Below, one piece after another: positions 27,879-61,135 of a stretch of DNA of 64,000 nucleotides. The stretch is from an uncultured Acidobacteriota bacterium. GTDB lineage: Bacteria > Acidobacteriota > Vicinamibacteria > Vicinamibacterales > CAVVIG01. The notes beneath the pieces were generated by a model. That model saw only the letters and a program-made list of their open reading frames with translations. It searched no databases and was not told where the DNA came from. The stretch's first letter is position 1. The number at the start of each line of letters is the position of its first letter. The stretch is from contig CAVXGU010000003.1 of the NCBI GenBank assembly GCA_963761615.1, forward strand, positions 1,155,238 through 1,219,237, in the 5' to 3' direction. A program made the translations under genes and the position numbers.

Positions 27879-29540
27879 TCATCGGTGGGTCGCGCCCGAC
27901 TTCCTTCGGCGATAGCGTTGGATCAGCGCGTTCGTCGAGCTGTCGTGCGCGAGCGGCGTCTCGTCCGAGCGTGTCAGCTCTGGCACGACCCGCGACGCCA
28001 ACACCTTGCCCAGTTCCACGCCCCATTGGTCAAACGAGTCGACGCGCCAGATTGTCCCCTGCGTGAACACACTGTGCTCGTAGAGCGCGACCAGCGCGCC
28101 GAGCGTCTCCGGCGTGAGTCGTTCGGCCAGGATGGTGTTGGTGGGCCGGTTGCCTTCGAAGGTGCGGTGAGCCACCAGTCGTTCCGGTATGCCCTCCGCG
28201 CGGACCTCCTCCGCGGTCTTTCCGAACGCCAGTGCCTGGGTCTGCGCGAAGACGTTCGCCATCAGCAGGTCGTGGTGATGCCCCAGCGGGTTCAGGGTCT
28301 CGCAGAAGCCGATGAAATCGCACGGAATCAACCGCGTGCCCTGGTGGATCAGCTGGTAAAAGGAGTGTTGCCCGTTGGTCCCTGGCTCGCCCCAATAGAT
28401 CGGCCCGGTCTGATAGTCAACAGACATGCCGTCCCGCGTCACGTGCTTGCCGTTGCTCTCCATCGTGAGCTGCTGCAGGTACGCGGGCAGGCGCTTCAGG
28501 TAGTGGTCGTAGGGGAGAACGGCCACGGTTGAGGCGCCGAAGAAGTCGGTGTACCAGATCGTGAGTAGCCCCATGAGGACCGGCAGGTTGCGTTCGAAAG
28601 GGGCGGTTCGAAAATGCTGGTCCATGGCGTGGAAACCCGCCAGCATCGCGCGAAATTGCTCCGGGCCAATCGCGATCATGGTCGACAACCCGATCGCCGA
28701 GTCCATCGAGTACCGGCCGCCGACCCAGTCCCAGAAGCCGAACATGTGGCTGGTGTCGATGCCGAACGCCGCGACTTGTTCGGCGTTGGTGGAGACCGCG
28801 ACGAAGTGTCGGCCGATGGCTCGCTCGTCTCCGAGCGCAGCCAGCGCCCACTCGCGTGCCGTTCGCGCGTTCGTCATCGTCTCGAGCGTGGTGAATGTCT
28901 TGGACGAGACGACGAACAGCGTCTCGGCGGGCTCGAGATCGCGCGTTGCCTCGGCGAAGTCGGTGCCGTCCACGTTCGACACGAAACGGAAACTCAGGTC
29001 CCGCTGGCTGTAGTGCTTCAGCGCTTCGTAGGCCATGACCGGGCCGAGATCGGAGCCCCCGATCCCGATGTTGACGATGGTGCGCACGCGCCGGCCCGTG
29101 TGGCCGCGCCAGCGGCCGTCCCGGACCTGGTCGGCGAAGGTGGCCATCCGATCCAGGACCTCGTGCACGTGGGGTACCACGTTGTCGCCGTCGAGGACGA
29201 TCGACTCGCTGCGTGGCGATCGAAGCGCCACGTGGAGCACGGCGCGATCCTCCGTCGTGTTGATCTTCTCGCCGCGGAACATCGCTTCGATGCGGTCGCG
29301 CAGCCCGCACGCCTCGGCCAGACCCACGAGGAGACGAAGCGTCTCGTCCGTGATGCGGTTCTTCGAATAATCGAGGTACAGGCCGGCGGCTTCAGCGGCG
29401 AGGCGTTCGCCGCGCGAGGGGTCGCTGGCGAACAGCTCGCGGAGATGGACGTCGCGCATCTGCTCGACATGCCGCGCGAGCGCTCGCCAGGCCGGGAGCC
29501 CCTTCAGAGGAGCTCGCTCGGTCGATGCCTTCGTCCTCAC
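27879..29540 (-). CDS. pgi: glucose-6-phosphate isomerase
   Basis: Full-length 553 aa with conserved PGI blocks ([37 protein letters not shown]). Confidence 0.95.
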
Positions 29541-30213
29541 GACGACACTCCTGTGGAGCGGCCTGCCTGGGTGGGCGTGCCACTCTTCGACGCCAGGCTG
29601 CGCATCAACTTGTTCCAGGACTGGTCGAACGACCGGGCGCCCTCCCGTTGGAGCTGGTCGCCCAGCGCCGCCACGTCCACGCCAGCTTGTGTGAATTGGC
29701 CGAGCACCTCTTCCGCGTCGCCGCCATCCGTCGGCATCGTCCCTGTGACACGGCCGTGATCCACAAAGGTGCAGAGTGTTTCCTCGGGGATGGTGTTGAT
29801 GGTGTCTGGCGCGGCGTGCGCTTCGCTGTAGAGCACGTCCGACTTGTCCCAGCGACTGATGAACATCGACGCGACGGACCCGACTTTCGGGTCGAGACCG
29901 GCCGCAATGCGCCGTTCGAGTCCACGCATGTACGCGTTCGCCGCCGCCAGATACTGCTCCCTGGAGAACAACAGGGTGACGTTCACCGGCACCTGCCGTC
30001 GCCGCTCTGCTGGCGAATCGACTCGTCGAAGAAGTAGCTGTTTTCGATGGCGTGATCGAAGATCGTCGGGTTCGACGTCAGTCCCGTCACGGACCACGCC
30101 TCGATGTACCGGCGAACCGTGCCGCTGGTCAGCAGGCCCCGCGTGATATTGTCGAGCCACAGGCTCTGTCCGAGCGCGTGAAGGCGGGCGGTGGTCCCTG
30201 TTGCTGTTGGCAT
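29537..30213 (-). pseudogene. tal: transaldolase, eroded by two internal deletions, one out of frame
   Basis: The N-terminal 70 aa ([31 protein letters not shown]..) are in one frame. At about 29990-30000 it jumps to another frame resuming at [23 protein letters not shown]. At 29839/29840 it jumps in frame to [25 protein letters not shown]... About 95 and 70 codons are missing relative to roughly 370-aa transaldolases, including the Schiff-base Lys region. Confidence 0.75.
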
Positions 30214-30312: not shown

Positions 30313-30420
30313 ATGGCTCTCTCCCGTTCGGGCGCGCTGGTGCTCCTCGGCGTCACGGGCGATCTCGCGCACAAGATGAACAGTCCCTTTCTGAACACCT
30401 CGGGCCTGCGGCGTTCATAT
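30313..30420 (+). pseudogene. zwf: possible glucose-6-phosphate dehydrogenase N-terminal stub
   Basis: ALVLLGVTGDLAHK matches the Zwf NADP-binding N-terminus (LVIFG.TGDLA.RK); similarity is lost within about 35 codons; divergent from tal. Confidence 0.3.
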
Positions 30421-30495: not shown

Positions 30496-30690
30496 ATGCG
30501 GATTTCGATCCACATGCTGTCGGGTCACGTCCGGCTCAATGCGTCCGGGCGCACCTTCGATCTGCGCGACGACAGTCTGATCGCACTCGATCATGGGGCC
30601 GCTCACGATATCGAAGCTCTCGAGGACAGTGCGCTCCTGCTCACGATCGCGTGGCCCGGCAGAACGGGCAAGGTCGCCGGCAGCGCGTAA
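30496..30690 (+). CDS. small cupin-like protein, possibly only the C-terminal half of a cupin
   Basis: GGAGG 5 nt before ATG 30496; [38 protein letters not shown] resembles the last strands of about 110-aa cupins; in frame with the zwf-like stub ORF (30313..30690). Confidence 0.4.
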
Positions 30691-30749: not shown

Positions 30750-32840
30750 ATGGAGGAGCAGGAACAGCTCTGCGTCAACGCGATCCGGATGCTGTCGATC
30801 GATACGGTTCAGAAGGCGAATTCCGGACATCCGGGTATGCCGATGGGCGCGGCCGCGATGGCCTATGTCCTCTGGACGCGCCACCTGCGGCACAACCCGA
30901 TGAACCCCGCGTGGCCCGACCGCGACCGGTTCGTGCTCTCGGCCGGGCACGCCAGTGCGCTGCTGTACAGTCTGCTGTTTCTGACTGGCTACGACCTCGC
31001 GATCGAGGATCTCGAACAGTTCCGCCAGTGGAAGAGTCGAACCCCAGGCCATCCTGAACACGGATGCACGCCTGGTGTCGAGGTCACCACTGGGCCCCTC
31101 GGCCAAGGATTTGGCAACGGCGTCGGGCTGGCGATCGCGGAGCGGTGGCTCGCGGCGACCTTCAATCGTCACGGCGACGATGTCGTGGACCACTGCACTT
31201 ACGTCCTCGCCAGCGATGGCGACATCATGGAAGGGGTGGCGTCGGAGGCGGCCTCGCTCGCCGGCACGCTTGGGCTCGGTCATCTGATCGTGCTCTACGA
31301 CGCGAATCTGATCACCCTCTCCGCGACGACGAACGTCACGTTCTCGGAGGACGTGGGCGCGCGCTTCGACGCCTACGGCTGGCACGTGCAGCGGATCGAC
31401 GGTCAGGACGTGGCGGCCGTCGATGCGGCGCTGACTGCGGCACGAGCCGCCGAGGATCGGCCGTCCCTCATCATCGGGCGCACGCACATCGGCTACGGCA
31501 GCCCGCACAAGCAGGACACGTGGCACGCGCACGGCGAACCGCTCGGGGTCGAGGAAGTGCGCCTGACGAAGCGCGCGCTCGGGTGGCCGGACGATCGCTC
31601 GTTCTATGTGCCGGACGAGGCGCTGCGGGAGTTTCGCGCGTGTGTCGATCGGGGCGTAGAACTCGAGGCGGCGTGGCAGCGCCGCGTGGACGCGTACGCG
31701 ATCGCGCACCCCGACGTCTCGCCACAATTTGCGCGAGCGCTCGCGGGTGAGCTGCCCGAGGGCTGGGAGACGCATCTGCCGACGTTCACGCCGGCCGACG
31801 GCGAGATGGCGACGCGCGACGCGGGTGGCGCGGTCATCGCGGCGCTGGCGGGCGCGGTGACGAATCTGGTCGGCGGCTCGGCGGATCTCAATCCATCGAC
31901 GCGTACCGCGATGCCAGGATGCGGCGACTTCGAACACGCGCCTCGACCCCAGTCCGATGAAAGCCTGCCGACGCAGGGTACGGCCGGCGGCGTCTGGGGG
32001 TTCGCGGGACGCAATATACATTTCGGCCTGCGCGAGCACGCCATGGCTGCTGCGCTGACCGGAATGGCGCTGCATGGCGGGGTGCGCCCGTTTGGCGCGA
32101 CGTTCTTCTCGTTCTCGGACTATATGCGGCCGAGCATCCGGCTCGCGGCCCTGAGCAGGGCGCACGTCATCTATGTCTGGACGCACGACAGCATCGCGCT
32201 GGGGGAGGACGGTCCAACCCATCAGCCCGTGGAACAGCTGGCCGGTCTGCGCGCGATGCCCAACATGCTGGTCCTGCGACCGGGCGACGCCACAGAGACC
32301 GTGGAGGCGTGGCGCATCGCGCTCCGGCACAAGGACGGACCGGTCGGGCTCGTGCTCACGCGGCAGAAGCTGCCCGTGCTGGACCGCGCGGTGCTGGCCC
32401 CGGCATCTGGTCTCGCCCAGGGCGCGTACGTTCTTGCTGAGGCTGGCGCGTTGCCGCCGGAGGTGATCCTGATTGCGACGGGATCGGAGGTGTCGCTCGC
32501 CCTGGCGTCGCACGCGCGGCTCGCCGCCGACGGGATCCGGAGCCGCGTCGTGTCGATGCCCTGCTGGGAGCTGTTCGACGCCCAGCCGCAGGCATACCGT
32601 GACGCGGTGCTGCCACCGAGCGTTCGCGCGCGGGTCAGCATCGAGGCGGCCGCGCCGTTCGGATGGGAGCGCTACGTCGGTTCAGGCGGCGCCATCATCG
32701 CCGTCGACGGCTTCGGCGCGTCCGCGCCTGGCCCCATCCTGATGCGCGCGTTCGGTTTCACGACGGAACATGTTGTCGCGACGGCCCAGGCTGTCCTGCG
32801 ACGCAGCCAAGGAGGTTCGCATGGAGAGACGGCCGGGTAA
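30750..32840 (+). CDS. tkt: transketolase
   Basis: 696 aa; [43 protein letters not shown] motifs; start ATG 30750 ([13 protein letters not shown]). Confidence 0.95.
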
Positions 32841-33718: not shown

Positions 33719-34288
33719 CTACGCGCAGCAAGACTGCTTCTTGCCGTCGTGGAGTTCTGCGCCCGGCAGCATCGCCTTGCTCCCGGCCACCTCGTTGCGC
33801 GTGCCGTGGGCGATCACCACGAACTTACCGGCCTTGATCAACGTCTCGTATTTCAGCACGCTGTCTTTGGGAATGCCGATCCCGTACAGACCGGCGCCCA
33901 AGGCGCTCATTCCCCCGACCACCGTCGCCCCCTCCAGCGCCCCGACGACCCAGGCCACGAGCGGCCCTGCCGCGAAGAGCGGTCCGATCCCCGGAATGAC
34001 GAACAGCGCCGACCCGAAGAGCATCCCCCAGAGTCCGCCCCAGAACGCGCCCGTCTTGCCCCACGCCATCATGCGATCACCGGTGTTGTAGTACCCGACC
34101 ACGCCTTCCTCGGTGGAGTAGTCTCTGCCCACGATGGAGAGCTTGTGCAGGTCGAAGCCAGATTTCGCGAGCGCGCGGACCGCCTCTTCGGCGGCGCGGT
34201 GGCTCTCGTAGACGGCGACGGCGCTCCCATGTGCCGATGTCTCTGAGCGGGCCGGTGTTTCTGGTGCGAGCGTCGCGTGTCCTGCCAT
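33719..34288 (-). CDS. stress-associated membrane protein (YflT/GSP17M-like N-domain + Gly-zipper TM region)
   Basis: VAVYESHRAAEEAVRALAKSGFD..LSIVG, then GAFWGGLWGMLFG..GIGPLFAAGPL..GALEGA; paralogous architecture to 47244..47927. Confidence 0.7.
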   Translation of the reverse strand: MAGHATLAPETPARSETSAHGSAVAVYESHRAAEEAVRALAKSGFDLHKLSIVGRDYSTEEGVVGYYNTGDRMMAWGKTGAFWGGLWGMLFGSALFVIPGIGPLFAAGPLVAWVVGALEGATVVGGMSALGAGLYGIGIPKDSVLKYETLIKAGKFVVIAHGTRNEVAGSKAMLPGAELHDGKKQSCCA

Positions 34289-34719
34289 GGTAGAGCCCCT
34301 CCGTTGTGAATGATCCCGAAAGCCGATTCGACGATCCCAGCGACCACGATGCGCTGAACCCACGAAAACCGATGTTCAAAAGTGGACTGACGTGACCCGC
34401 GCCGGCGCCCGCTGCACCGGCTTCCGCCCGGATCCCGGAATAGTTCCCATCCGCCGCCCCGGAGCTGCGGTGGCCGCCGCGAGGCGTGCGTGTTCACGAG
34501 CGGGATGTCCCCCCTCCTCCTCAGACGAGCCGCGAGCGTCGTAATGACGATCGACAGGCCGTCTTCCGACTCACCAGTCCGGTGGCGGACGGCGTCCAGA
34601 TCGATCGCCAACCGGGTCCGGCTGGAGGGTTCCCAGTGGCAAAGGAGCGCCCGCCCGCACGTCCGTGCGCTCGGAGATGGCCGCCCTGTAGTGGTGCAAC
34701 TCGCGTTCGGGCGTCGCCA

Positions 34720-37266
34720 TCATCGTTGCCAGAGGATGCGAGCGAATTCCAGGGGAATCGCGACTCCGGAGCGCCGAGGAATCACGCGCGCCGTGTAGTC
34801 GTTCGCCGGACGCGTCGTGGGCACTGTCGCGTGATAGACCCAGGGGCTGGCTGGGTCAGGTTGCGGCCGCGCGCACGTCATGTCCGCGCGGACGGGGTCG
34901 CCGCCATCCGGTCCGTCCGCACACAGTTCGACGCGCACCGCGTGCGGGTCGAGACCGTTCAGAAAGAGCTCAACCTCGAACCTGTGGTGCTCCGCACGTG
35001 TGTCGACCCGCACCTCCCCGAAGCGCAGCGCGCTCCACTTCCGGTCCACTTGGTGCTGCCAGTCGAGCAACTGACTCGCCACGGCGCCCTTGTTCGCCGC
35101 ACGCTCACGGTAGGCGGCGGCCGCCGGGAGGTAGTGGCGCTCGGTGTATTCGCACACCGTCCGGGTGGTGGAGAAGCGCGGTGTCAACCGCGCCAGACTT
35201 TCCCGCATTCGCGCGACCCAGGCGGTCGGAATGCCATGCTCGTCACGGGCGTAGAACTCCGGAATCACCGTCCGCTCGAGCAGGTCGTAGAGGGCCTCGG
35301 CTTCAACCGCGTCCCAGGCCGGATCGTCGCCATGCTCCTGGCCATCCCCCAGCGCCCAGCCCACGTCAGGCGTGTAGGCTTCCGCCCACCAGCCGTCCAA
35401 TTCCGACAGATTGAGGCCGCCATTGACGAGCACCTTCATACCGCTCGTGCCGGACGCCTCCCAGGGGCGGCGCGGCGTGTTGAGCCAGACATCCACGCCC
35501 TGTACCAGGTGCTCCGTCAGCTGCATGTCATCGTCGCTGAGGAAGATGGCGTGCGGACGGACCGCGGGCTGGCGAATGAAGTGAATCCATTGCTGGATGA
35601 GCGCTTGTCCGGCCGCGTCTGCGGGATGGGCCTTGCCGGCCAAGACAAGCTGCACCGGGCGCCGCGCGTCGGTCAACAGTCGAAGCAGCCGCTCCGGACT
35701 GTGGAGCAGCAGGTTCGGTCGCTTGTACGTCGCGAAGCGGCGCGCAAAGCCCAATGTCAAGGCGTGGGGATCGAATAGATGCGTCGCCCCATCCACCGCC
35801 TCCGGCGACGCCCCGGCGATGGCCAGTTGTCCGGAAAGTCGCTCGCGCACGTAGCCCACGAGCGCCGTGCTGGCGGCCGTGCGAAATTGCCAGACTCTGG
35901 AGTCGGAGATGCGGCGGATGTCCTGCTCCAGGTTGTCCGTCGGCGTCTGCCAGCGGTCCTTTCCACAGGCTTCCGTCCAGAGATCATCGGCTGGTGCCGA
36001 GTCCCAGGTCGGCATGTGGACGCCGTTCGTCACATGTCCGACGGGCACATCGTGCTCTGGCCAGTGCGGAAACAGAGGCTCGAACAGGTGTCGGCTGACC
36101 TGCCCATGCAAGCGACTCACCCCGTTCACCGCCCCGCTCCCGCGGATGGCCAGATAGGCCATGTTGAACGGCTCCGACGCGTCGTCCGCATTCTGACGGC
36201 CCAGGGCCAGCAGATCGTGGAGGGTCACGCCGAGTATCTTCTCGGCATAGGCTCCAAGGTATTGCTCGATGAGCGCCGGAGCGAACCGATCGAATCCCGC
36301 GGCGACGGGAGTGTGCGTGGTGAAGAGGTTCCCCGCACGCGTGGCAGCCAGCGCGACGTCGAAGGGTTGCCCCGCGTCTTCCATGAAGCTTCGGGCGCGA
36401 TCCAACACCGCGAAGGCCGCATGCCCTTCGTTCAAGTGACAGACGTCCGGTGTGATGCCCAGCGCGCCGAGCAACCGCCAGCCACCAATCCCGAGCAGCA
36501 GTTCTTGCTTCAGTCGCACCTCCGGCCCGCCCCCGTACAGCTCGCTGGTAATCGTTCGATGAGCCGGGACGTTCGCTGCGTCATTGCTATCGAGCAGATA
36601 GAGCTTGATCCGGCCCGCCTGGACCTGCCAGGCACGCAGCCAGACCGAGGAACCGGGCAGAGCGATCTCCAATCGGACCCACTCGCCGTTCGGACGCCGA
36701 ACGGGCATGATCGGCAACTGTCCAGGGTCGTTGTATGGGTAGAGCGCTTGTTGCGCGCCGTCGTTGTCAATCACCTGGCGAAAATAGCCTTGCTGGTAGA
36801 GCAGTCCGACACCGACCACCGGGACGCCCAGATCGCTGGCCGCCTTGAGCTGATCGCCCGCCACGTTGCCCAGTCCGCCTGAGTAGATCGGAAGCGCTTC
36901 GCTCAGCATGAATTCCATGCTGAAATACGCGACCGACGTCAAGGGGGCGCGCGGATGTTCTCGTTGAAACCACGCCGGCGCCGCCGCCGCGTGACGCGTG
37001 GCGTTCAGCAGATCGTCAACGCTCTTGCGAAAGCCAGGCTCGTTCAGCTGTTGCTCGAGGGTATCTCGCGACACGGTCTGCAGGACGACCCAGGGATTGT
37101 GCGTCAGGTCCCACAGGACGGGATCGAGCGTGCGCCAGACGCCGTCGGTCGCATGGTTCCAGGACCAGCGCATATCCAGTGCCAGCGCCGCGAGGGAATC
37201 GAACCCCTCGATCTCGGTGGGCAGGAGGTTGTAGATCGGATGGCTGACACGGGGGTGTGTGCTCAT
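34720..37266 (-). CDS. glgP: alpha-glucan (glycogen/maltodextrin) phosphorylase, GlgP-type of the 850-aa class
   Basis: 848 aa; AYFSMEF..LPIYSGGLGNVAGD, NEGHAAF, PLP-Lys region GTSGMKVLVNGG. Confidence 0.9.
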   Translation of the reverse strand: MSTHPRVSHPIYNLLPTEIEGFDSLAALALDMRWSWNHATDGVWRTLDPVLWDLTHNPWVVLQTVSRDTLEQQLNEPGFRKSVDDLLNATRHAAAAPAWFQREHPRAPLTSVAYFSMEFMLSEALPIYSGGLGNVAGDQLKAASDLGVPVVGVGLLYQQGYFRQVIDNDGAQQALYPYNDPGQLPIMPVRRPNGEWVRLEIALPGSSVWLRAWQVQAGRIKLYLLDSNDAANVPAHRTITSELYGGGPEVRLKQELLLGIGGWRLLGALGITPDVCHLNEGHAAFAVLDRARSFMEDAGQPFDVALAATRAGNLFTTHTPVAAGFDRFAPALIEQYLGAYAEKILGVTLHDLLALGRQNADDASEPFNMAYLAIRGSGAVNGVSRLHGQVSRHLFEPLFPHWPEHDVPVGHVTNGVHMPTWDSAPADDLWTEACGKDRWQTPTDNLEQDIRRISDSRVWQFRTAASTALVGYVRERLSGQLAIAGASPEAVDGATHLFDPHALTLGFARRFATYKRPNLLLHSPERLLRLLTDARRPVQLVLAGKAHPADAAGQALIQQWIHFIRQPAVRPHAIFLSDDDMQLTEHLVQGVDVWLNTPRRPWEASGTSGMKVLVNGGLNLSELDGWWAEAYTPDVGWALGDGQEHGDDPAWDAVEAEALYDLLERTVIPEFYARDEHGIPTAWVARMRESLARLTPRFSTTRTVCEYTERHYLPAAAAYRERAANKGAVASQLLDWQHQVDRKWSALRFGEVRVDTRAEHHRFEVELFLNGLDPHAVRVELCADGPDGGDPVRADMTCARPQPDPASPWVYHATVPTTRPANDYTARVIPRRSGVAIPLEFARILWQR

Positions 37267-37439
37267 GCGGTAAGGCCTTTGTGCTTCCCAGACGGCGCCG
37301 CCAGCGTCTCGCTGACGATCGTCTGCGCTTCGTCGACGATGCGGCGCAGATGATCCGCGCCCTTGACCGTCGCGCCTCGAATGACGTCCATCGGGTTCCT
37401 TCCGCGTCGGGCGAGGTGCCGGAAGCTCCGCGGTCCGGC

Positions 37440-40046
37440 CTACCGTTTGCGGATCTCGCGTTCCGCCTGGAGCCAGTCCCGCTCGGCCGGGCTTCGCCCC
37501 TGGAGGCGCTGCTCGTAGATCTCATAGGCGCGTCTTGCGATCTCTGGCGTCAGGTCGGGCGTGCCTCTGGCCAGGAGCGGCGCGGCGGTTGGGTCGAACA
37601 CCCGATACGCAAGCAGTTTCACGCGGTCGTTCACGAGGAACCACGCCAGCGCATAGCCCCACACGAACAGCGCCCAGCCCCAGCCGATGGGCGTCATGAA
37701 CAACCCATAGACGGCAATGAGCGTGGCCGCCGTCTGCGTCCCGAGCACCGCCACCCACAGGATCCGCGCCGGGCGGATGGACCAGAACGAGCGGCGCGTG
37801 CGTGTCAAGAAGATCGTCAGGTGTCCGGCCACTGACAGCTTCAAGTACATCAGGGTCTGGATGTGCGCGCGGTCGAGGTGAAAGACGCGCTCGCCGAGAT
37901 AGAACAGGCCAAAGGCCGCGACGACCCCGATGACGCCGAGCACCGTGGAGATCCCCAGCACGAGGCGCATGTTCCAGGCTTCCGGCGTGTCCTTGTAATG
38001 GACGTTGTCATAGGCGATCGACAGGATGGCGCCGTCGTTGAGCAGCGCCAGTATGACGATCATCACCGCGGTGACGGGATAGAAATTGAAGACGAGGATG
38101 GCCAGCGTCATGAACAGGAGCACGCGCAGCGTTTCAGCGATCCGGTACATGGCGTAGCTGTTCATCCGCTGGAAGATCTTCCGGCTCTCCTTGATCGCGT
38201 CGATAATCACCGACAGGCCGGGCGCCAGCAGCACGATGGACGCCGCGGCGCGCGCGGCGTCGGTCGCGCCAGACACGGCGATGCCGCAGTCGGCCTTCTT
38301 CAGCGCAGGGGCGTCGTTCACCCCGTCGCCGGTCATGCCGACGATGTGGCCGCGTCGCTGCAGCACGTCCACGATGTGGAACTTGTGCTCGGGAAACACC
38401 TGTGCGAATCCGTCCGCCTGCTCGATCGACGCCGCCTGTGCCGCCGTCGCGTCCTGCTTGGTGTCGCCCAGGCTGCTGGCGTCGAGGATGTTCGTGCCCA
38501 ACCCCAGCTGTCGCGCCGTTTCTCTCGCGATGGCGACCTGATCGCCCGTCACCATCTTGACCGTCACGCCCATCTGGCGAGCGCTGGCGATCGTGGCTTT
38601 GGCCTGCTCGCGCGGCGGATCGAACAACGGCAGCACGCCGACGAACTTCCACTGGTCTGGCTGATCGGCCCGGGCCACGCCCAATGAACGGAAACCGCGG
38701 GCCGCGAACGCATTGACGGCCTCTTCGACGGCCGGCGTCACCGCGCCCACGTTCTTCGATATCTCGAGAAGGACCTGTGGCGCCCCCTTGGCCACGAAGA
38801 ACTGTCGTCCGTCCCTGCCCTTGACCGTGGCTTCGGTGCGCTTGTGCACGGGGTCGAACGGCTGGAAATGCAGAACCTGGTAGTCTTTCAGCGCCTGATC
38901 GTCCTTCACGCCGCCGATCACCGCGAGGTCGATCGTGTCCTTGTCTTCCGCGCGTGACGCGAGGGCAGCCCAGAGAATGACCTGCGCGGCCGGGATCCCG
39001 TCGACGCTGAATGGCTCGCCCAGCGTCAGCGTGTTCTGGGTCAGGGTGCCGGTCTTGTCCGAGCACAGCACATCCACGCCGGCGAGCTCTTCGATTGCCG
39101 ACAGCCGGGTCACGATCGCTTGCTTCTTCGCCAGGAGCCGCGCGCCGACGGCCATGGTCACGGACAGCACGGTGGGCATGGCCACGGGGATCGCGGCGAC
39201 GAGCAGCACCAGGGCGAACTCCAAGGTGTCGAGCATCGGGTCGCCACGGAAGAGGGCGACGGTCACGATCAACACGACCAGCGCCACGGCGAGGATGATC
39301 AGGTAATCGCCGATCTTCAGCACGGCACGTTGGAAATGGCTGACGGTATGAGCCTCCTGGACCAGTTGCGCCGTCTTGCCAAAGTACGTATTCGCGCCGG
39401 TGGCGTAGACCATGGCGTCGATCTCGCCCTGGCGGATGATCGACCCGGAATAGACAGCCTCGCCGGTCTTACGTGTGGCGGGCAACGATTCGCCGGTCAG
39501 CGCGGACTGGTCCACCTCCAGGGGATCGCCTGCCAGCAGTCGCGCATCGGCTGGCACGATGTCGCCCAGTCGTAGCCGGATGACGTCACCGGGTACGAGT
39601 TCACGCGCGGCCGGCGTCGTCCACTTCCCATCACGCTTCACCCTGGCTTTGACCGCCAGCTTGGCCTTCAGAGCCGCGATGGCGTTGCCCGCCTGGTGTT
39701 CTTCCCAGAATCCGACGACGGCGTTGGACGCGAGTAACAGAAGGATGATGAAGAAATCCAGCCAGTGCCGGACGACGCCAGACAGGATCACCGCACTTTC
39801 GATCATCCACGGGATGGGTCCCCAGAAGTACGTGAGGAACTTCAGGAACGCATTGGTCTTCTGTTCGGCAATCTCGTTCGGCCCATACTGGGTCAGGCGC
39901 TTCTGCGCTTCGGCGCCGGTGAGGCCATCCGGCGACGACCCCAGCTTCTTTTCCACGTCTGCCAGCGGCAGCGTCTTCAGATCGTCCTTCGTGCCGGGCG
40001 TGGGCCCCGGCTTCGATTCAGGAGGCGTCGATGTGTCTCTCGCCAT
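37440..40046 (-). CDS. P-type ATPase, plasma-membrane H+-ATPase-like (P3A-like)
   Basis: TGES, CSDKTGTLT, MVTGD, GMTGDGVNDAPALKKADCGIAV; 10-TM layout; C-terminal tail IARRAYEIYEQRLQGRSPAERDWLQAEREI is DUF2934-like; start ATG 40046. Confidence 0.9.
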   Translation of the reverse strand: MARDTSTPPESKPGPTPGTKDDLKTLPLADVEKKLGSSPDGLTGAEAQKRLTQYGPNEIAEQKTNAFLKFLTYFWGPIPWMIESAVILSGVVRHWLDFFIILLLLASNAVVGFWEEHQAGNAIAALKAKLAVKARVKRDGKWTTPAARELVPGDVIRLRLGDIVPADARLLAGDPLEVDQSALTGESLPATRKTGEAVYSGSIIRQGEIDAMVYATGANTYFGKTAQLVQEAHTVSHFQRAVLKIGDYLIILAVALVVLIVTVALFRGDPMLDTLEFALVLLVAAIPVAMPTVLSVTMAVGARLLAKKQAIVTRLSAIEELAGVDVLCSDKTGTLTQNTLTLGEPFSVDGIPAAQVILWAALASRAEDKDTIDLAVIGGVKDDQALKDYQVLHFQPFDPVHKRTEATVKGRDGRQFFVAKGAPQVLLEISKNVGAVTPAVEEAVNAFAARGFRSLGVARADQPDQWKFVGVLPLFDPPREQAKATIASARQMGVTVKMVTGDQVAIARETARQLGLGTNILDASSLGDTKQDATAAQAASIEQADGFAQVFPEHKFHIVDVLQRRGHIVGMTGDGVNDAPALKKADCGIAVSGATDAARAAASIVLLAPGLSVIIDAIKESRKIFQRMNSYAMYRIAETLRVLLFMTLAILVFNFYPVTAVMIVILALLNDGAILSIAYDNVHYKDTPEAWNMRLVLGISTVLGVIGVVAAFGLFYLGERVFHLDRAHIQTLMYLKLSVAGHLTIFLTRTRRSFWSIRPARILWVAVLGTQTAATLIAVYGLFMTPIGWGWALFVWGYALAWFLVNDRVKLLAYRVFDPTAAPLLARGTPDLTPEIARRAYEIYEQRLQGRSPAERDWLQAEREIRKR

Positions 40047-40048
40047 CG

Positions 40049-40180
40049 TCAGCCCTTTCGTAGCAGAACAATGATGCTGACCAACCCGGCCAACAGCGCA
40101 ATCCACAGCCCGATCGCGGCGCGCGTGGCCTTACGGGCGCCCTTCTCCTCCCACCAGCTCGCTGAATGAGTGCCCTGCAC
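40049..40180 (-). CDS. candidate 43-aa single-TM micro-protein immediately upstream of the P-type ATPase
   Basis: GTG 40180 .. TGA 40049-40051, 2 nt before the ATPase ATG; (M)QGTHSASWWEEKGARKATRAAIGLWIALLAGLVSIIVLLRKG; about 79 percent G/C at codon position 3; no clear SD. Confidence 0.3.
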   Translation of the reverse strand: MQGTHSASWWEEKGARKATRAAIGLWIALLAGLVSIIVLLRKG

Positions 40181-40249
40181 CGAAAACGTGAGAACGCCGA
40201 CCAGGTTGAGCCCGCGTGCGCTCCGTCCGGCTCCATTCTCGCGTCCGTG

Positions 40250-40852
40250 TCATCGCAGTCCCGGCTGCGCCCAACGCGCGGCCGGGCCGGCGTTCCACAG
40301 CGTAATGACTGGCACCCTTGGGTGGTCGGGTTCGTGGCCGAGAACACTGAGCGACGCCGGGCCGAGCGCAAAATGCTGCCCTTCGATCGTCGGCATGCCG
40401 ATCCAGCGCGCGGCCAGGACGCACCCGAACTGGCCGTGCGAGAACAGCGCGACGTTGCCGCTCAGGCTCAGCAGATGTGCGATGAGCCGATCGGCGCGCT
40501 CGGACACCTGCGCGGCCGTTTCGCCGCCAGGACAGCCATCCCGAAACACATTCCAGTCCGGTCGTCCCTGGCGGATGTCCACCGTGCGCCGGCCTTCGTA
40601 CTCGCCGTAGTCCCATTCCTCCAGGTCCGGTTCGACCTCGGCCGCCGATCCCAGCCCGGCCAATTCGCATGTTCGCCGCGCGCGTTGCCGGGGGCTGGTC
40701 AGCACGCGTGCAAAGTCGACCTCTCGGAGGACCGGCGCAAGGGTGCGCGCCTCGTCCTCGCCGCGCGCGGTCAACGGAATATCCGTGCGACCGGTATGCT
40801 GACCGGAGCGCGTCCACTCGGTGTCGCCGTGGCGAATCAGGTAGAGCTGCAC
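40250..40852 (-). CDS. histidine phosphatase superfamily protein (phosphoglycerate-mutase-like)
   Basis: LIRHGDTEW (RHG motif), second catalytic His in FSHG; 200 aa. Confidence 0.85.
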   Translation of the reverse strand: MQLYLIRHGDTEWTRSGQHTGRTDIPLTARGEDEARTLAPVLREVDFARVLTSPRQRARRTCELAGLGSAAEVEPDLEEWDYGEYEGRRTVDIRQGRPDWNVFRDGCPGGETAAQVSERADRLIAHLLSLSGNVALFSHGQFGCVLAARWIGMPTIEGQHFALGPASLSVLGHEPDHPRVPVITLWNAGPAARWAQPGLR

Positions 40853-41892
40853 GAGCCTGCCAGGCGCCCTTCCATAGCGGCATCGTATTCGCCGCGAAGC
40901 GCAGCGCGATTACACTCGGCCCGGTGGAGCAGCGCGTGCTGCGCCGCCACTCGACGCGCCTCCGTGCCTCCCCAGATTCCCAGTGCCGGTCGCTGGATGG
41001 CGCGACCGAAGGAAAACGTCAACGCCCAGGGCAGTGGCGACGCCGGTGCTCTGAACCTGACATGCATGGCATTCAAGCGAGCCGAGGCCAGTTCGCCGGA
41101 TTGGCCGCCGGACAGGAACGCAATCCCGGGAACGGCGGCGGGGACGACTCGCAGGAGACAGCGCACCGTCGCGTCCGCTACTTCGTCGACAGTCGCTTGC
41201 GTGCCGCAGGTCAATCCCGGCAGCACCATGTTGGGCTTCAGGATCATCGCCTCCAGCATCACCCGCTGGATCGCGAGCTCATCGAACACTCTTCGCAGCA
41301 CCTCCTCCGTGACCGCGCGGCACCGCTCCAGTGTATGCCCGCCTGCCATGAGCACTTCGGGCTCGACGATCGGGACCAGTCCGGCTTCCTGGCACAACGC
41401 GGCATAGCGAGCCAGCGCCTGCGCGTTGGCCTCGAGGCAAGCGCGGCTGGGCAAGCTGTCGCCCACCGCGATCACCGCGCGCCACTTGGCGAAACGGGCG
41501 CCCATCTGTCCGTACTTCTGGAGGCGGACCCGCAACCCGTCCAGGCCTTCGGTGATCCGTTCACCGGGATGGCCGGCGAGGGGCTTGGCGCCGATGTCCA
41601 CTTTGATGCCGGGCATGATGCCGGCATCGACGAGGACCTTGACGAAGGGGGTGCCGTCCGTCGTCGTCTGGCGGATCGTCTCGTCATAGAGGATCGCGCC
41701 GCTGATGCACGCGGCCAGATCCGGCGTGGTCACCATCAATTCCCGATAGGCGCGGCGGGCCTCCTCGGTCTGGGGAATCCCCGCCTTGGCAAAGCGCTTG
41801 TCGCAGGTGCCCTTGCTCTCGTCCATCGCGAGCAGGCCCTTGCCGCCGGCGACGAGCGCCGTGGCGGCGGCTCGAAGCCCCTGCCCGTTCAT
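40837..41892 (-). CDS. fba: class I fructose-bisphosphate aldolase
   Basis: [41 protein letters not shown] blocks; ATG 41892 overlaps the xfp stop by 4 nt. Confidence 0.9.
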
Positions 41893-44270
41893 TGCGCCGC
41901 ACTCCATTTCCAGTTGCGGATTTCGGGCAGGTCCTGGCCGTGCTGGTCGATGTACTGCTTGTGTGCGATGAGCTTGTCCGCCATCGTCTGCTTCAGATAG
42001 GCGCCCTTGGCGCCCAGATGGGGCAGGCGATCGACCACGTCCTGCACCAGGTGGAACCGATCGAGATCGTTCTGGACTCGCATGTCGAACGCCGTCGTAA
42101 TCGTGCCCTCCTCCTTGTAGCCGCGCACGTGCAGGTGGCGATTGGTCCGGCGGTAGGTGAGCCGATGGACGAGCCAGGGGTAGCCGTGAAAGCCGAAGAT
42201 GATGTGCTTGTCCGTCGTGAAGAGCGAGTCGTAATCCCTGTCGGTCAGCCCGTGCGGGTGCTCCGTGCTCGGCTGCAGTTTCATCAGATCGACGACGTTG
42301 ACCACGCGAATCTTCAGATCCGGCAGATGTGCGCGCAGGATCGACACGGCGGCCAGAATCTCCAGCGTCGGCGTGTCTCCGCAACAGGCCATCACCACGT
42401 CGGGATCGCCGCCCTGATCATTGCTGGCCCAGGGCCAGATCCCGATTCCTTCCGTGCAGTGCACCACCGCTTCGTCCATGGTGAGCCATTGCGGAAGGGC
42501 GTGTTTACCCGCCACCACCACGTTGACGTAGTGCCGGCTGCGCAGGCAGTGGTCGAACACCGACAGCAAACAGTTCGCGTCCGGTGGCAGATACACCCGC
42601 ACGATATCGGCCTTCTTGTTGATCACGTGGTCGAGGAAGCCGGGATCCTGGTGCGTGAAGCCGTTGTGGTCCTGCTGCCAGACGTGGGAGGCGAGCAGGT
42701 AGTTCAGGGAGGCGATGTTCCGGCGCCAGGGCAGTTCCCGGGTGACCTTGAGCCACTTGGCGTGCTGGCTGAACATCGAGTCCACGATCCGAACGAAGGC
42801 TTCGTAGCAGTTGAAGAGCCCATGCCGCCCGGTGAGCAGATAGCCCTCCAGCCACCCCTCGCACTGGTGCTCGCTGAGCATCGAGTCCAGCACGCGTCCA
42901 GCGGGCGCGAGGAACTCGTCGTTCTCGACGGTTCGCGCGTCCCACTGCCGGTTGGTGACGTCGAAGACGGCGCCCAGCAGATTCGAGACGGTTTCGTCCG
43001 GCCCGAAGACCCGGAAATTGCGCTGATCCTGATTCAGCTTCTCGACGTCACGCAGGAACGTGCCGAGGACGAGCGTGTCCTGGCCATCGACGGCGCCGGG
43101 CGACGGGACCTTCACCGCGTGGTCGTGGAAGTCCGGCATGCGCAGGTCGCGCAGCAGCACGCCGCCGTTGGTGTGCGGATTGGCGCCCATCCGGCGGTTG
43201 CCCTTCGGCGCCAGCTCGGCCAACTCGGGCCGCAGTCGGCCGTTCGCATCGAAGAGCTCGTCGGCCTTGTAGCTCTTCATCCAGCTCTCGAGCTGCGCGA
43301 CATGATCGGGGTGTGCGGCATCGACGAGCAGCGGGACCTGGTGCGCCCGGAAGGTCCCCTCGATGGGCAGGCCGTCTACGAACTTGGGTCCAGTCCAGCC
43401 CTTGGGTGTCTTGAGGACGATCATCGGCCAGCGCGGTCGAGTGGTGTCCTTCGTTTGCCGCGCGTGCTCGTGAATGCGTCGGATGTCCTCGATGACGTGG
43501 TCCAGGGTGGCGGCCATACGCTGGTGCATCCCGTCCGGCTCGTCGCCTTCCACGAAGTACGGCGTCCAGCCGCAGCCTCGGAGGAACTGCTCCAGTTCCT
43601 CGTGTTCGATGCGGGCCAGCACGGTCGGGTTGCTGATCTTGTAGCCGTTGAGGTGCAGGATGGGCAGCACGGCTCCGTCCGTGATCGGGTCGAGCAGCTT
43701 GTTGGACTGCCAGGCGGTCGCGAGGGGGCCGGTTTCTGCTTCGCCGTCGCCGATGACGCACGCCACAATCAGATCGGGATTGTCGAACGCGGCCCCGAAC
43801 GCATGGCTCAATGAGTACCCCAGCTCGCCCCCCTCGTGAATCGAGCCCGGCGTCGTCGGCGCCACGTGGCTGGAAATCCCGCCGGGAAACGAGAACTGCT
43901 TGAAGAGCTTCTTCAGGCCGGCTTCGTCCTGGCTGACGTTCGGATAGATCTCGCTCCAGGTGCCCTCGAGGTACACGTTGCCCACAATCGCCGGGCCGCC
44001 GTGACCGGGGCCGGCGATGTAGAACATGTCCAGGTCGTATTGCGTGATGACCCGGTTCAAATGGACGTAGATGAAGTTCTGGCCCGGCGTCGTGCCCCAG
44101 TGTCCGACGACCAGCGGTTTCACGTGCGCGAGTGTCAGCGGCTCTTTCAGCAGCGGATTGTCGTACAGGTAGATTTGGCCGACCGACACGTAGTTGGCAG
44201 CCCGCCAGTACGCGTCCATCCTGTGGAGGAGGTCAGGCGTCAGGGGAGTCGGCGGCAGGTGATCTCTCAT
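41889..44270 (-). CDS. xfp: xylulose-5-phosphate/fructose-6-phosphate phosphoketolase
   Basis: 793 aa; [54 protein letters not shown]-like blocks; start ATG 44270. Confidence 0.95.
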
Positions 44271-44623: not shown

Positions 44624-44830
44624 TCACCGCTTCACGGCCTTGCGGACGCGGGACATCGCGTCGCTGGCCTTGTGCCCGATCCGGCCGACAGCGGCCTCGA
44701 CCTTGCCCGCGGTCACGTCCGCCCGGCCCTCGGCCTTGAGGTGGTTGTCACGGGTCACCGCGGCGACCGCCTGCTTGACCTTGCCCTTCGCCTGATCGAC
44801 GTTCCCTCGACGCTCCTTGCTGTTCCACAT
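44624..44830 (-). CDS. CsbD-family stress protein
   Basis: [25 protein letters not shown]...GKVE..VG; 68 aa. Confidence 0.8.
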
Positions 44831-47927: not shown

Positions 47928-48265
47928 ATCGCCTCCTCTGATCAACGACCAACCCACCCGGATCCGCCGGCGTGAGGTCCACGACGCTACCCGCACGGAC
48001 CGGGTCGTGCTGTCCACAAGTGGACACCGAAAGGCCCAAGGCTGGCGCGAAGGGGTGATGGCAGATCGGTCCTGGGCCGACCCGGGATGACGTCAGCTCT
48101 CACGCTCCAAAGGCGTCATCAAGGGCGGGTCCCGGATTGAACAGCGTCGGCGCCGCCGAGCTGTCAGACTGGCATCACGATCAGTTCTGCAAACAACCAC
48201 CGGGCGCCGGTATCCCGGCAAGTCGGTGTGAAGCGGTCGAGCTGAGCGGATGGAAAGACGGGCTC

Positions 48266-48919
48266 ATGACAGCCAAGCGACGCAAATCCTTCGACATCCA
48301 CGCCTTCCTGTCCTCGTCGGGGATTGCGAGAAAGATCGTCCACTACCGGCGGTCCGAGACCATCTTCTCGCAGGGTGAGCCCTGCGAGCACGTCCTCTAC
48401 ATCCAGCAAGGCAGCGTCAAGCTGTCGGTCGTCTCGAAGTCCGGTCGGGAGGCGGTCGTGGCGATGTTGGGCCCCGGAGAGTTCTTCGGCGAAGGGGGCC
48501 TCGCGGGACAGTCCCTTCGCTTGGCCAGCGCGACCGCAGCGGTGGACAGCACGATTCTCCTCGTCGACAAGGACGAGATGATCAAGCTTCTGCACCAGGA
48601 GCGCGCCTTGTCCGACCGGTTCATCACCCACATGCTGTCGCGGAACATCCGGGTCGAGGAGGACTTGATCGACCAGCTGTTCAACTCGAGCGAGAAACGG
48701 CTGGCCCGCACCCTCCTCCTGCTGGCGCGATACGGCAAGCACGACAACCCGGTCCGGCCGGTTCCGTCGATCTCGCAGGAGACGCTGGCGGAAATGATCG
48801 GCACGACGAGATCGCGCGTCAACTTCTTCATGAAGAAGTTCGAGCGGCTCGGATTCATCGAGTACAAGAACGGGCTCAAGGTCAACAGCTCGCTGCTCAC
48901 CGTCGTCCTGCACGACTAG
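48266..48919 (+). CDS. Crp/Fnr-family transcriptional regulator
   Basis: cNMP-binding barrel (LYIQQGSVKLSVVS.SGREAVVAMLGPGEFFGE); C-terminal HTH (SQETLAEMIGTTRSRVNFFMKKF). Confidence 0.9.
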   Translation: MTAKRRKSFDIHAFLSSSGIARKIVHYRRSETIFSQGEPCEHVLYIQQGSVKLSVVSKSGREAVVAMLGPGEFFGEGGLAGQSLRLASATAAVDSTILLVDKDEMIKLLHQERALSDRFITHMLSRNIRVEEDLIDQLFNSSEKRLARTLLLLARYGKHDNPVRPVPSISQETLAEMIGTTRSRVNFFMKKFERLGFIEYKNGLKVNSSLLTVVLHD

Positions 48920-49157: not shown

Positions 49158-49234
49158 GCCATCCCCATCGGCCGAGGATCGCAGGATCGAACGTGGGAGA
49201 TGCGGAGCTCCTCCTGTCGGGCTACGCCGTTACA

Positions 49235-49341
49235 GCGTTTTCGAGATCGATGTCGCCCCGAGATCGGTGTAGCCGCGGACCGTCAGGTCCGCCAATGCGA
49301 AGCCGACCTGAAGGTCGGCCGCTACAGCGAAACGAAAACCG
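49235..49341 (+). repeat. REP/MITE-like intergenic repeat, copy A
   Basis: About 90 percent identical by eye to the reverse complement of 60996-61120. Contains 2 units of GAGATCGNTGTCNCCCC and two hairpins: GCGGACC-gtca-GGTCCGC and GCCGACC-tgaa-GGTCGGC. Confidence 0.8.
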
Positions 49342-59135: not shown

Positions 59136-59480
59136 TCGGCAGTTGACGTCGAAGGGCAGGATACCGCTGACACGCCGGTCGATCTGTTCACTAACGCACG
59201 TCGGTGTGACATCGCTCCGGCGCGCGAGGTCCCGGTGATCGGCGTCGCGTTGCCGACGTGGAGTGTGGAGCGGCTGCACGCGCGCGTGACCGACAGCATC
59301 CGGCGAGCGGGCGGCGTCGATAGCCCGCGCGGGCCTCGCGATCTGCTCGCCCCGCTCACCTATGTCAGTGGGGACTATCGAGATCCGGGCAGGCTCGTGG
59401 CCATCAAGGAGGCGTCGGGACGCCTGCCATCCACCTCCGGCACGTGTCGAGCCGGGATGCGGCCGGACCCCCCACTGTAG
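59136..59480 (+). pseudogene. zwf: glucose-6-phosphate dehydrogenase fragment (residues about 20-115 only)
   Basis: LFTNARRCDIAPAREVPVIGVALPTWSVERLHARVTDSIRR....LLAPLTYVSGDYRDPGRLVAIKE parallels Zwf (L..L...G.LP..F.+IG.AR.DWS.E.F...V...+......L..R+.YV.GDY.D). No proper start, stop at 59478-59480; the catalytic two thirds are absent. Confidence 0.5.
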
Positions 59481-61120: not shown

Positions 61121-61135
61121 GTAGAACGAGATAGA

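Follow-up and report, generated by a model that had tools for sequence, protein, structure and literature searches.

A conserved phosphoketolase, aldolase and phosphatase gene cassette with a possible role in a natural phosphoketolase cycle

The gene cluster described here lies in a 64,000-nucleotide (nt) stretch of DNA, called the window below, from an uncultured Acidobacteriota bacterium of the order Vicinamibacterales (assembly GCA_963761615.1, contig CAVXGU010000003.1, positions 1,155,238 to 1,219,237). The cluster occupies positions 34720 to 44270 of the window. It begins with genes for a phosphoketolase (xfp), a class I aldolase (fba) and a histidine phosphatase, which recur together in other phyla and might form the core of a natural phosphoketolase cycle. 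Because the window is about 68% G+C, long spurious open reading frames (ORFs) are common, and gene calls were based on Pfam and NCBIfam family models.

Five large genes, all on the minus strand, were identified by these models. The xfp gene (41889-44270) encodes a phosphoketolase of 793 amino acids (aa) with the complete XFP_N-XFP-XFP_C architecture, and scores 1424 bits against NF003619, above the curated cut-off of 962. The fba gene (40837-41892) encodes a class I fructose/sedoheptulose-bisphosphate aldolase (FBA) of 351 aa (PF00274, E 5e-126; NF033379 equivalog, 494 bits against 250), and overlaps xfp by 4 nt, ATGA, as read from the sequence. The phosphatase gene (40250-40852; 200 aa; PF00300, His_Phos_1, E 1.7e-46) overlaps fba by 16 nt and starts with GTG at 40852. 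A micro-ORF of 43 aa (40049-40180, minus strand), read from the sequence and with one predicted transmembrane helix, comes next, and 2 nt after its stop is the ATG of a predicted type IIIA P-type H+-ATPase (37440-40046; 868 aa; TIGR01647 equivalog, 1055 bits against 615) with a C-terminal DUF2934. A spacer of 173 nt (37267-37439) separates the ATPase from glgP (34720-37266), which encodes an alpha-glucan phosphorylase of 848 aa with DUF3417 and Phosphorylase domains (TIGR02094, 782 bits against 192). The tight overlaps suggest translational coupling. An ORF of 250 aa in another frame (40131-40883) has no family match, and the large antisense ORFs on the plus strand across the cluster have no Pfam match. 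The initial annotation had proposed this minus-strand run and both overlaps, and the sequence and family models bear it out.

The phosphatase belongs to a large family, with at least 8000 homologues at E <= 1e-10 and 60-86% identity across phyla. In the sources these homologues are labelled only "PhoE", "probable phosphoglycerate mutase" or "phosphoglycerate mutase family". Residues R7, H8, G9, R57, E79 and H139, which include the catalytic histidines of the RHG and SHG motifs, are invariant across 16 homologues. When a profile was searched against the PDB, the first-ranked protein was Mycobacterium tuberculosis Rv3214, or GPM2 (2a6p; E 6e-50, 173 bits), and the second was yeast YKR043C, or Shb17 (3f3k, 3oi7; E 6e-33, 117 bits), for which the structures include complexes with fructose 1,6-bisphosphate (FBP) and sedoheptulose 1,7-bisphosphate (SBP). 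CobC came next (1e-26, 95 bits), and PhoE, PspA and phosphoglycerate mutases scored far lower, at 66 bits or less. A Foldseek search with an AlphaFold2 model gave the same order, GPM2 and then Shb17, including the Shb17-SBP complex 3oi7. In pairwise comparison the phosphatase is 42% identical to GPM2 over 188 aa and 38% identical to Shb17, and it shares the motifs EW[DE]YG[DE]YEG and WN[VI][FW]RDGC..GET with Shb17.

Membership in the named subfamilies is not indicated. The nearest NCBIfam model, PRK13462 for Rv3214-type acid phosphatases, is matched at 183.3 bits, below its cut-off of 226, and the protein also lies below the cut-offs for CobC, GpmB, 2,3-bisphosphoglycerate-dependent phosphoglycerate mutase (dPGM), SixA and PspA. 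Its scores are 40 against 82 for TIGR01258 and 62 against 261 for GpmB, and its length is 200 aa compared with about 250. By these scores the phosphatase is a sister family to the Rv3214-type enzymes, not an equivalog. Its sequence and fold resemble those of GPM2 and Shb17 more than those of CobC, PhoE, dPGM, PspA or SixA, and it is placed by similarity in the GPM2/Shb17 branch, the only branch of the histidine-phosphatase superfamily known to act on sugar bisphosphates. The initial annotation had pointed to the yeast SBP phosphatase (SBPase) Shb17 as a member of the superfamily, and Shb17 does stand second, directly after GPM2.

Both characterized members of the branch act on sugar bisphosphates. 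GPM2 is a lithium-resistant FBP phosphatase (FBPase) that sustains gluconeogenesis in vivo, with a Km for FBP of 5.5 mM and a kcat of 187 per second (PMC4535450). It is 31% identical to Shb17, an enzyme active both as an SBPase and as an FBPase, and it was assayed on FBP, not on SBP (PMC4535450). Its earliest description was as a broad acid phosphatase, and phosphate starvation induces it (PMC4535450). The protein in the window is thus best named a putative fructose/sedoheptulose bisphosphatase (F/SBPase), and its sequence is compatible with either SBP or FBP as the main substrate.

The phosphatase is frequently encoded beside xfp and fba. One genome per GTDB species was scanned with an alignment of the phosphatase family, which gave at least 595 loci, and the best 80 were examined with 10-kb flanks. 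Two plasmid loci and two metagenome loci were added. The genes xfp, fba and phosphatase are adjacent on one strand in 30 loci, xfp and phosphatase occur without fba between them in 14, and fba and phosphatase are paired in 11. In six loci xfp or fba is near but non-adjacent, in 14 the phosphatase is alone, and five are too truncated for judgement. Expressed over the 72 informative loci, the adjacent same-strand trio is found in 30 of 72 and the xfp-phosphatase pair in 14 more, so the xfp-fba-phosphatase set is conserved as a functional unit and its adjacency is not due to chance.

Module loci cover roughly eight phyla and an actinobacterial plasmid. Alpha- and Betaproteobacteria are among the carriers of the trio, which is found in Acetobacteraceae, Rhodopila, Acidocella, Roseiarcus, Rhodoblastus, Methylobacterium, Novosphingobium and Caulobacteraceae, and also in one betaproteobacterium, Desulfocapsa, Bryobacter, Anaerolineales and Polyangiales. 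Near-trios occur in cyanobacteria (Phormidesmis) and Verrucomicrobiota. On a plasmid of Frondihabitans sp. PAMC 28766 (Actinomycetota; NZ_CP014514.1; locus L001), the order is ATPase-phosphatase-fba-xfp, and the DNA is about 76% identical to the window. Such identity in an actinobacterial plasmid copy is consistent with horizontal transfer between phyla.

The L001 module is flanked by genes for GH65, a beta-phosphoglucomutase (beta-PGM), universal stress proteins and an alcohol dehydrogenase. Its fba and ATPase genes are missing from the gene table of the plasmid, and the ATPase aligns in two pieces; both may be pseudogenes. Two Antarctic lichen-associated bacteria, Frondihabitans and Lichenicola cladoniae (L002), carry the module on plasmids. 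Culturable carriers among the loci include Methylobacterium sp. BTF04 (L054), Novosphingobium sp. Fuku2-ISO-50 (L060), Hyphomicrobium sp. 2TAF46 (L056), L. cladoniae PAMC 26569 (L002) and Pseudomonas sp. TH41 (L048).

All ORFs of the 80 loci were clustered, and the recurrent clusters were annotated. Xfp is present in 49 of the 80 loci and FBA in 45, followed by P-type ATPases (18) and acetate kinase (ack; 17), whose gene lies directly upstream of xfp. GH65 disaccharide phosphorylases and PPK2 occur in 10 loci each, with L029, L041, L047, L056, L069, L075 and L085 among the related loci that bear PPK2. Beta-PGM-like HAD proteins and glucose-6-phosphate isomerase (pgi) occur in nine each, transaldolase (tal) in eight, triosephosphate isomerase (tpi) in seven, zwf and gnd in six each, and transketolase (tkt) and glgP in four each. 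In another locus, L086, rpiB follows the phosphatase gene. A single strand of Desulfocapsa DNA (L020) carries glgP-ATPase-xfp-fba-phosphatase-tkt, the same genes as in the window, differently ordered and with an ATPase of a different subtype. The module-adjacent ATPases are of several subtypes (IIIA H+, IIIB Mg-like and type II-like). This mixture points to a functional rather than an inherited association, in which the recurring item is an ATP-driven cation pump.

Uncultured Alphaproteobacteria provide the best matches, and the locus closest to the window is L085, an ENA metagenome contig. Its order is ack-xfp-fba-phosphatase-tpi-...-micro-ORF-[ATPase stub]-PPK2-pgm-glgP, where pgm encodes phosphoglucomutase (PGM). 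The DNA of the window is 92% identical to L085 over xfp-fba-phosphatase, 85% over the micro-ORF and the first 28 ATPase codons, and 85% over glgP and the short region just upstream of it. That region holds an ORF of 42 codons (37391-37263, minus strand) within the 173-nt spacer, still open, whose stop overlaps the glgP start by ATGA. In tblastn searches it matches the C-terminus of the PGM whose gene immediately precedes glgP in L085 (64% over 36 aa, E 9e-11) and the PGM C-termini of the cyanobacterial loci L035 and L038, and L085 carries PGM_PMM genes at this position. By these alignments the ORF is the remnant of a deleted phosphoglucomutase gene, comprising its last 40 or so codons. The initial annotation thus gave the correct length for the spacer, but the spacer is not empty.

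The window and L085 kept different parts, so their common ancestor probably carried a longer operon. Judged by this comparison, the window copy has been reduced by loss of ack, tpi, PPK2 and pgm, and in L085 the pump was lost. In L085 (11380-11530) an ATPase stub directly after the micro-ORF joins the first 28 or so codons to the last 10 or so. A cupin remnant at 30498-30660 of the window is 81% identical in nucleotides to a cupin-domain gene of L085.

Several other genes of sugar phosphate metabolism lie near the cluster. Both tkt (30750-32840, plus strand; TIGR00232, 833 bits against 682; start set by alignment to the Tkt of L006) and pgi (27879-29540, minus strand; PF00342 spanning 1-486 of 486; NF001211, 857 bits against 492) are intact. 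The tal gene (29537-30213, minus strand) is a pseudogene in two frames with two internal deletions. Its N-terminal piece (30192-29989) and C-terminal piece (29992-29567) are in different frames, and about 86 aa, including the catalytic Schiff-base lysine segment FIKIPGT, and a second stretch of about 55 aa are missing. The zwf gene is represented by stub A (30313-30393, plus strand; codons 1-27; tblastn with the Zwf of L008, 74% identity, E 1e-5), which lies before the cupin remnant and tkt, and stub B (59220-59420, plus strand; codons 35-101; 54% identity, E 1e-16). Five Zwf queries found stub B at the same place; an Escherichia coli Zwf query, which is too distant, missed both stubs, and closer Zwf sequences found them. 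The initial annotation had described this state of tal, zwf, pgi and tkt, and alignments and family models agree with it.

The zwf stubs represent successive segments of a single gene and share a strand; the 28.8 kb between them holds tkt, the xfp cluster and many stress genes. Codons from about 102 onward are not present in the window. This arrangement suggests that zwf was split by one or more insertions; no clean insertion boundaries and no integrase were found. GC3 across 27.9-47 kb is somewhat lower than in the flanks. An inversion at the inverted repeat pair 49231-49341 and 60996-61123 was considered and rejected as the cause of the split, because the stubs are on the same strand and inverting the segment would not join them.

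As the initial annotation had stated, no acetate kinase gene lies in the window. Neither ack nor pta was found by tblastn with E. coli proteins, for which the Pta query extended to about residue 584 of 714, or with the acetate kinases of 16 related loci. The tpi gene was not found in the window, and rpi and rpe, for which no specific search was made, did not turn up. Four members of a non-oxidative-glycolysis or SBPase-phosphoketolase cycle are thus encoded in the window, namely Xfp, FBA, the putative F/SBPase and Tkt.

Phosphoketolase cleaves fructose 6-phosphate (F6P) to acetyl phosphate and erythrose 4-phosphate (E4P), and xylulose 5-phosphate (Xu5P) to acetyl phosphate and glyceraldehyde 3-phosphate (GAP). 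To return this carbon to Xfp substrates, an aldolase and an irreversible bisphosphatase are needed. With moderate confidence, we interpret the gene run in the window as a reduced form of a phosphoketolase cassette that is widespread, moves horizontally and supports a natural cycle of the non-oxidative-glycolysis type, closed by FBA and the F/SBPase. The recurrent neighbors (ack, tpi, rpiB, tkt, pgi, PGMs and phosphorylases) favor this reading because they are the enzymes that such a cycle needs.

The cycle would begin with GlgP, which, as its enzyme family suggests, would release glucose 1-phosphate from stored alpha-glucan. A PGM, now lost from the locus, and Pgi would convert this product to F6P. 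Xfp would then cleave F6P and Xu5P by the activity known for its family. The class I aldolase would join dihydroxyacetone phosphate (DHAP) with E4P to form SBP, or with GAP to form FBP. Homology and linkage suggest that the GPM2/Shb17-type phosphatase would irreversibly remove the 1-phosphate to give sedoheptulose 7-phosphate (S7P) or F6P. Tkt from the window, with Rpi, Rpe and Tpi from outside it, would return carbon to the substrates of Xfp. In sum, a hexose phosphate would yield up to three acetyl phosphates without NAD(P)H. Acetate kinase encoded elsewhere would convert acetyl phosphate to ATP, and the co-located P-type H+-ATPase might spend ATP to hold proton-motive force and pH when respiration is unavailable. 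A redox-free output of acetyl phosphate would suit ATP supply without respiration. The initial annotation had proposed a feed from glycogen and a link to an ion pump, which fits, since phosphorylases and P-type ATPases recur beside the module in relatives in a manner expected of a storage-carbohydrate feed coupled to an ion pump.

The route by which the cycle is closed depends on the substrate of the phosphatase. When E4P and DHAP are converted by way of SBP to S7P, transaldolase is not needed, and when GAP and DHAP are converted by way of FBP to F6P, it is. Cycles of both kinds have been constructed synthetically. The initial annotation had proposed that the trio could replace transaldolase, citing the dead tal and zwf genes. 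The conservation of the trio and the clade of the phosphatase partly support that proposal. The dead genes, however, are weak evidence for a transaldolase-free route, because relatives carry the module beside intact tal (eight loci) and zwf (six loci). For example, locus L008 has pgi-tal / xfp-fba-phosphatase / zwf-gnd with tal and zwf intact, L037 has tal-pgi-xfp-fba-phosphatase with tal intact, L036 has zwf-tal-phosphatase-pgi, and L050 and L072 also have the module beside intact tal or zwf. Thus, tal and zwf often travel with the module, and the dead copies look like debris of accessory, module-linked paralogues. Their decay says little about housekeeping copies, which may be encoded elsewhere in the genome.

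It is possible, though rather doubtful, that the phosphatase is a dedicated SBPase and that the trio replaces transaldolase through SBP. Shb17 is a close homologue, being 38% identical to the window protein compared with the 31% between GPM2 and Shb17, and both shared motifs are in keeping with this role, as is the loss of tal in the window. Moreover, the SBP variant needs the fewest enzymes and works synthetically (PMC10468489). Yet the nearest homologue, GPM2, is an FBPase, assayed on FBP only, the module sits beside intact tal in eight related loci (L008, L036, L037 and L072 among them), and the dead tal of the window was probably an extra, module-linked copy.

That the phosphatase is instead mainly an FBPase like GPM2 seems unlikely. 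In that case FBA and FBPase would recycle triose phosphates to F6P, transaldolase would be supplied from elsewhere, and the genes would serve an FBP-dependent non-oxidative glycolysis, a cyclic pentose phosphate pathway or gluconeogenesis. The top similarity is to GPM2 (42% identity), whose role as an FBPase is proven in vivo, and the phosphatase gene is part of a zwf-tal-phosphatase-pgi run in L036 and neighbors zwf-gnd in L008 and L050. However, this explanation leaves unaccounted for the 14 loci in which the phosphatase is paired directly to xfp with no fba between, and the Km of 5.5 mM suggests that FBP is not the preferred substrate of the clade.

A third alternative dispenses with the cycle. 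The phosphoketolase pathway would be linear, the phosphatase would be a broad scavenger of sugar phosphates or phosphate, and the ATPase and glgP would be mere co-residents of a stress island. The early description of GPM2 as a broad acid phosphatase and its induction by phosphate starvation are consistent with this arrangement, as are the best NCBIfam match, to the "acid phosphatase" model PRK13462 (183 bits, below 226), and a neighborhood that is a mosaic of stress genes (CsbD, YflT, YtxH, a DksA-like protein, CHAD and NhaA). However, the family is 60-86% identical across phyla, and its adjacency to xfp and fba is nearly fixed even though the surrounding gene order is shuffled; neither would be expected of a non-specific scavenger. 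We therefore regard this alternative as quite improbable.

It is highly improbable that the cassette survives in the window only as a decaying remnant with no working pathway. Relative to L085 it has lost ack, tpi, PPK2 and pgm, its tal and zwf are dead, and the cupin remnant is another relic. Against this, all five large ORFs are full length by comparison with family models, they are 85-92% identical in nucleotides to L085 with undisrupted frames, and the enzymes it lacks are usually supplied by housekeeping genes at other sites.

Several observations weigh against the favored interpretation of a natural phosphoketolase cycle. The substrate assigned to the phosphatase family is a prediction from homology and gene linkage, and the AlphaFold2 model is of moderate quality only, with a predicted local distance difference test (pLDDT) score of 69. 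The high Km of GPM2 for FBP and its broad phosphatase activity mean that the family could be promiscuous. In 14 of the 72 informative loci neither xfp nor fba lies within 10 kb of the phosphatase gene. Since the 80 loci are the top matches to a query linked to xfp, they sample one orthologous subfamily only. The window copy is without ack, pta, tpi and pgm, so that the pathway depends on genes outside the window, and the locus shows decay in the form of the dead tal, the zwf stubs and the pgm and cupin remnants.

A stronger version of the natural-cycle reading holds that a complete non-oxidative glycolysis is packaged as a mobile cassette with a phosphorylase, a P-type pump and PPK2, and that the phosphatase represents a new and widespread bacterial class of SBPase/FBPase. 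We advance it tentatively, as plausible but with more doubt than confidence. The cassette would have the order (ack)-xfp-fba-F/SBPase-(tpi/rpiB/tkt) with a glucan or trehalose phosphorylase. If so, aerobic bacteria of soil, peat and lichen in many phyla would gain about three ATP per stored hexose without an electron acceptor, and this ATP would keep the membrane energized in anoxia, desiccation or dormancy. If the inference of a natural cycle is right, non-oxidative glycolysis, which is seen as a synthetic invention, would have a widespread natural counterpart with its own metal-independent bisphosphatase, and a specific role would be assigned to thousands of genes annotated as "phosphoglycerate mutase family" or "PhoE". 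The cassette would also offer a testable mechanism by which obligately respiring soil and lichen bacteria draw on glycogen or trehalose for maintenance ATP and proton-motive force in the absence of oxygen and without redox imbalance, as well as sets of enzymes that have evolved together in nature and could be used to engineer routes to acetyl-CoA.

The kinds of enzymes involved are already known, as are the pathway logic, which comes from engineering, and the properties of GPM2 and Shb17. Literature searches returned no description of a natural conserved cassette of xfp, fba and a GPM2/Shb17-like gene, or of any connection between it and phosphorylases or P-type pumps, and found only papers on synthetic cycles and on GPM2. 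An SBPase cycle with a trifunctional phosphoketolase (SCTPK) works synthetically, and Shb17 is among the candidate SBPases tested for it (PMC10468489). That paper also cites a yeast study, Hellgren 2020. The cassette resembles these cycles in its phosphoketolase, its FBP/SBP aldolase, a putative sugar bisphosphatase as the second irreversible step, and the proposed use of Tkt, Tpi, Rpi and Rpe. The redox-neutral conversion of a hexose phosphate to up to three acetyl phosphates would also be shared by the window genes. Synthetic non-oxidative glycolysis itself was reportedly introduced by Bogorad in 2013. Whereas the synthetic cycles are engineered, the cassette is natural, is conserved across phyla and is linked to storage-glucan phosphorylases and ion pumps. 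This linkage makes maintenance energy, rather than product yield, its likely role.

The other known systems differ from the cassette in distinct ways. GPM2 is likewise a metal-independent enzyme of about 200 aa with the same catalytic residues, but the window phosphatase is below the Rv3214-type cut-off, and a linkage of GPM2 to xfp or fba is not described in PMC4535450. Shb17 (structures 3f3k, 3ll4 and 3oi7) is the SBPase of "riboneogenesis", in which an aldolase supplies its SBP from E4P and DHAP. However, it is about 270 aa long with insertions, has its role in eukaryotic ribose synthesis and shows no linkage to a phosphoketolase.

The bifid shunt of bifidobacteria also uses Xfp, Tkt and acetate kinase and obtains ATP from acetyl phosphate. 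That shunt needs transaldolase and sends GAP to lactate or pyruvate. In contrast, the sole tal of the window, which would have to function with Xfp and Tkt, is dead and lacks the catalytic-lysine segment, and the aldolase/bisphosphatase pair attached to xfp implies recycling of triose phosphates and E4P.

The phosphoketolase may itself sense ATP. The motif of ATP-inhibited phosphoketolases is PW-X2-H-X3-YR-X7-H-X-R-X31-R (Lu et al. 2023, PMC10365998). Within residues 698-748 of the window Xfp all eight regulatory residues are present, with the spacer YR-X6-HxR instead of X7, so that the stretch is one residue shorter than RTNHDNIHVRG. The X6 variant occurs in seven of 20 related Xfp sequences, one of them cyanobacterial, and the strict X7 motif is found in the other 13 of 20.

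The ATPase is most similar among solved structures to Arabidopsis AHA2 (5ksd, E 4e-216). It contains DKTGT, and the alignment to 5ksd shows conserved equivalents of AHA2 Asp684 (LNDG, TM6) and Arg655 (TM5), so that proton transport by a type IIIA pump is predicted. The TIGR01647 assignment, the structural match and these two residues are features in common with the plant and fungal H+-ATPases AHA2 and Pma1. Unlike them, the window protein is bacterial, is without the plant autoinhibitory C-terminal domain, carries a DUF2934 tail and is preceded by the membrane micro-ORF; its ion specificity is a prediction.

The micro-ORF product is 79% identical in L085, and the nucleotide differences by codon position (5, 3 and 11 for positions 1, 2 and 3) show a third-position bias. 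It has no Pfam match, and among the loci examined it is conserved only in L085. A role as a general partner of the ATPase was rejected, because seven other loci have no counterpart upstream of the orthologous ATPases. The micro-ORF may encode a genuine lineage-specific small membrane protein.

The cluster lies in a neighborhood of stress or dormancy genes. Between the zwf stubs are stress-type genes for CsbD, two YflT proteins, YtxH, a DksA-like protein and a Crp-family regulator, together with genes for CHAD, NhaA, an ABC transporter and a PLD-like protein. A gene for a CsbD-like general stress protein (44624-44830, minus strand; PF05532, E 9e-10, 38.7 bits, just below the cut-off of 40) is directly upstream of xfp, across a 353-nt spacer. 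Downstream of glgP is a gene for a YflT-domain stress protein (33719-34363, minus strand; PF11181, E 8e-8), and YflT homologues are near the module in five related loci. The Crp/FNR-family regulator (48137-48919, plus strand) has cNMP_binding and HTH_Crp_2 domains and scores below all NCBIfam equivalog cut-offs. Its gene is 74% identical in nucleotides to a Crp gene of L085, where Crp-family genes lie near the module.

Two polyphosphate-related genes also lie in the window, for a CHAD-domain protein (51419-52306) and a PLD/PP_kinase_C-like protein (57821-58969). The occurrence of polyphosphate genes with the module hints at a link between acetyl phosphate or ATP production and polyphosphate.

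For the EcfG general-stress promoter (GGAAC-N15-18-CGTT), the window has one match, inside the phosphatase gene, against 1.9 expected, and one match was found in 46 xfp upstream regions, so this candidate was rejected. The FNR/FixK box (TTGA-N6-TCAA) was also rejected; it is not enriched in the window and occurs in two of 46 xfp upstream regions at two or fewer mismatches. A scan of 33-46 kb for sigma-70 promoters and terminators found none in intergenic gaps and nothing above shuffled controls. No Rfam family was found in the cluster or in six related loci, and the sole match is a tRNA at 61139-61224.

The related loci contain a recurrent motif of their own. The exact 11-mer GTAGTTTCCGA is present in 44 copies in 23 alphaproteobacterial loci, and its extended form is GTAGTTTCCGA-N2-CT(G/A)CC-N18-(C/G)TA, in which the spacing is fixed at 25 nt and is occasionally 26 nt. 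The motif is absent from the window and from L085, and Rfam has no match for it. In 11 loci it precedes xfp by 115-270 nt, and it always points to the downstream gene, which is xfp in 11 cases and in others tpi, P-type ATPase, beta-PGM, PPK2 or fba, with 26 other or unidentified genes. Examples are L007:3257, L024:6376, L037:6377, L063:6393 and L002:13371(-). The motif looks like the promoter or operator of a dedicated stress regulon, of neither the EcfG nor the FNR type, which would bring these functions under common control.

Other repeated sequences were observed in the window. The 8-mer GTCCACTT is found upstream of xfp and of both YflT-domain genes (44390, 34387 and 48025, all on the minus strand). 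As a regulatory site it is too weak a candidate, with six copies in the window, three of them in coding sequence. The copy at 48025 is part of a perfect palindrome, GTCCACTTGTGGAC. In addition, an intergenic pair of inverted repeats of 100-130 nt, 93% complementary, is located at 49231-49341 and 60996-61123, 11.7 kb apart. The second copy abuts the tRNA gene on the minus strand, and the pair may be a mobile or REP-like element.

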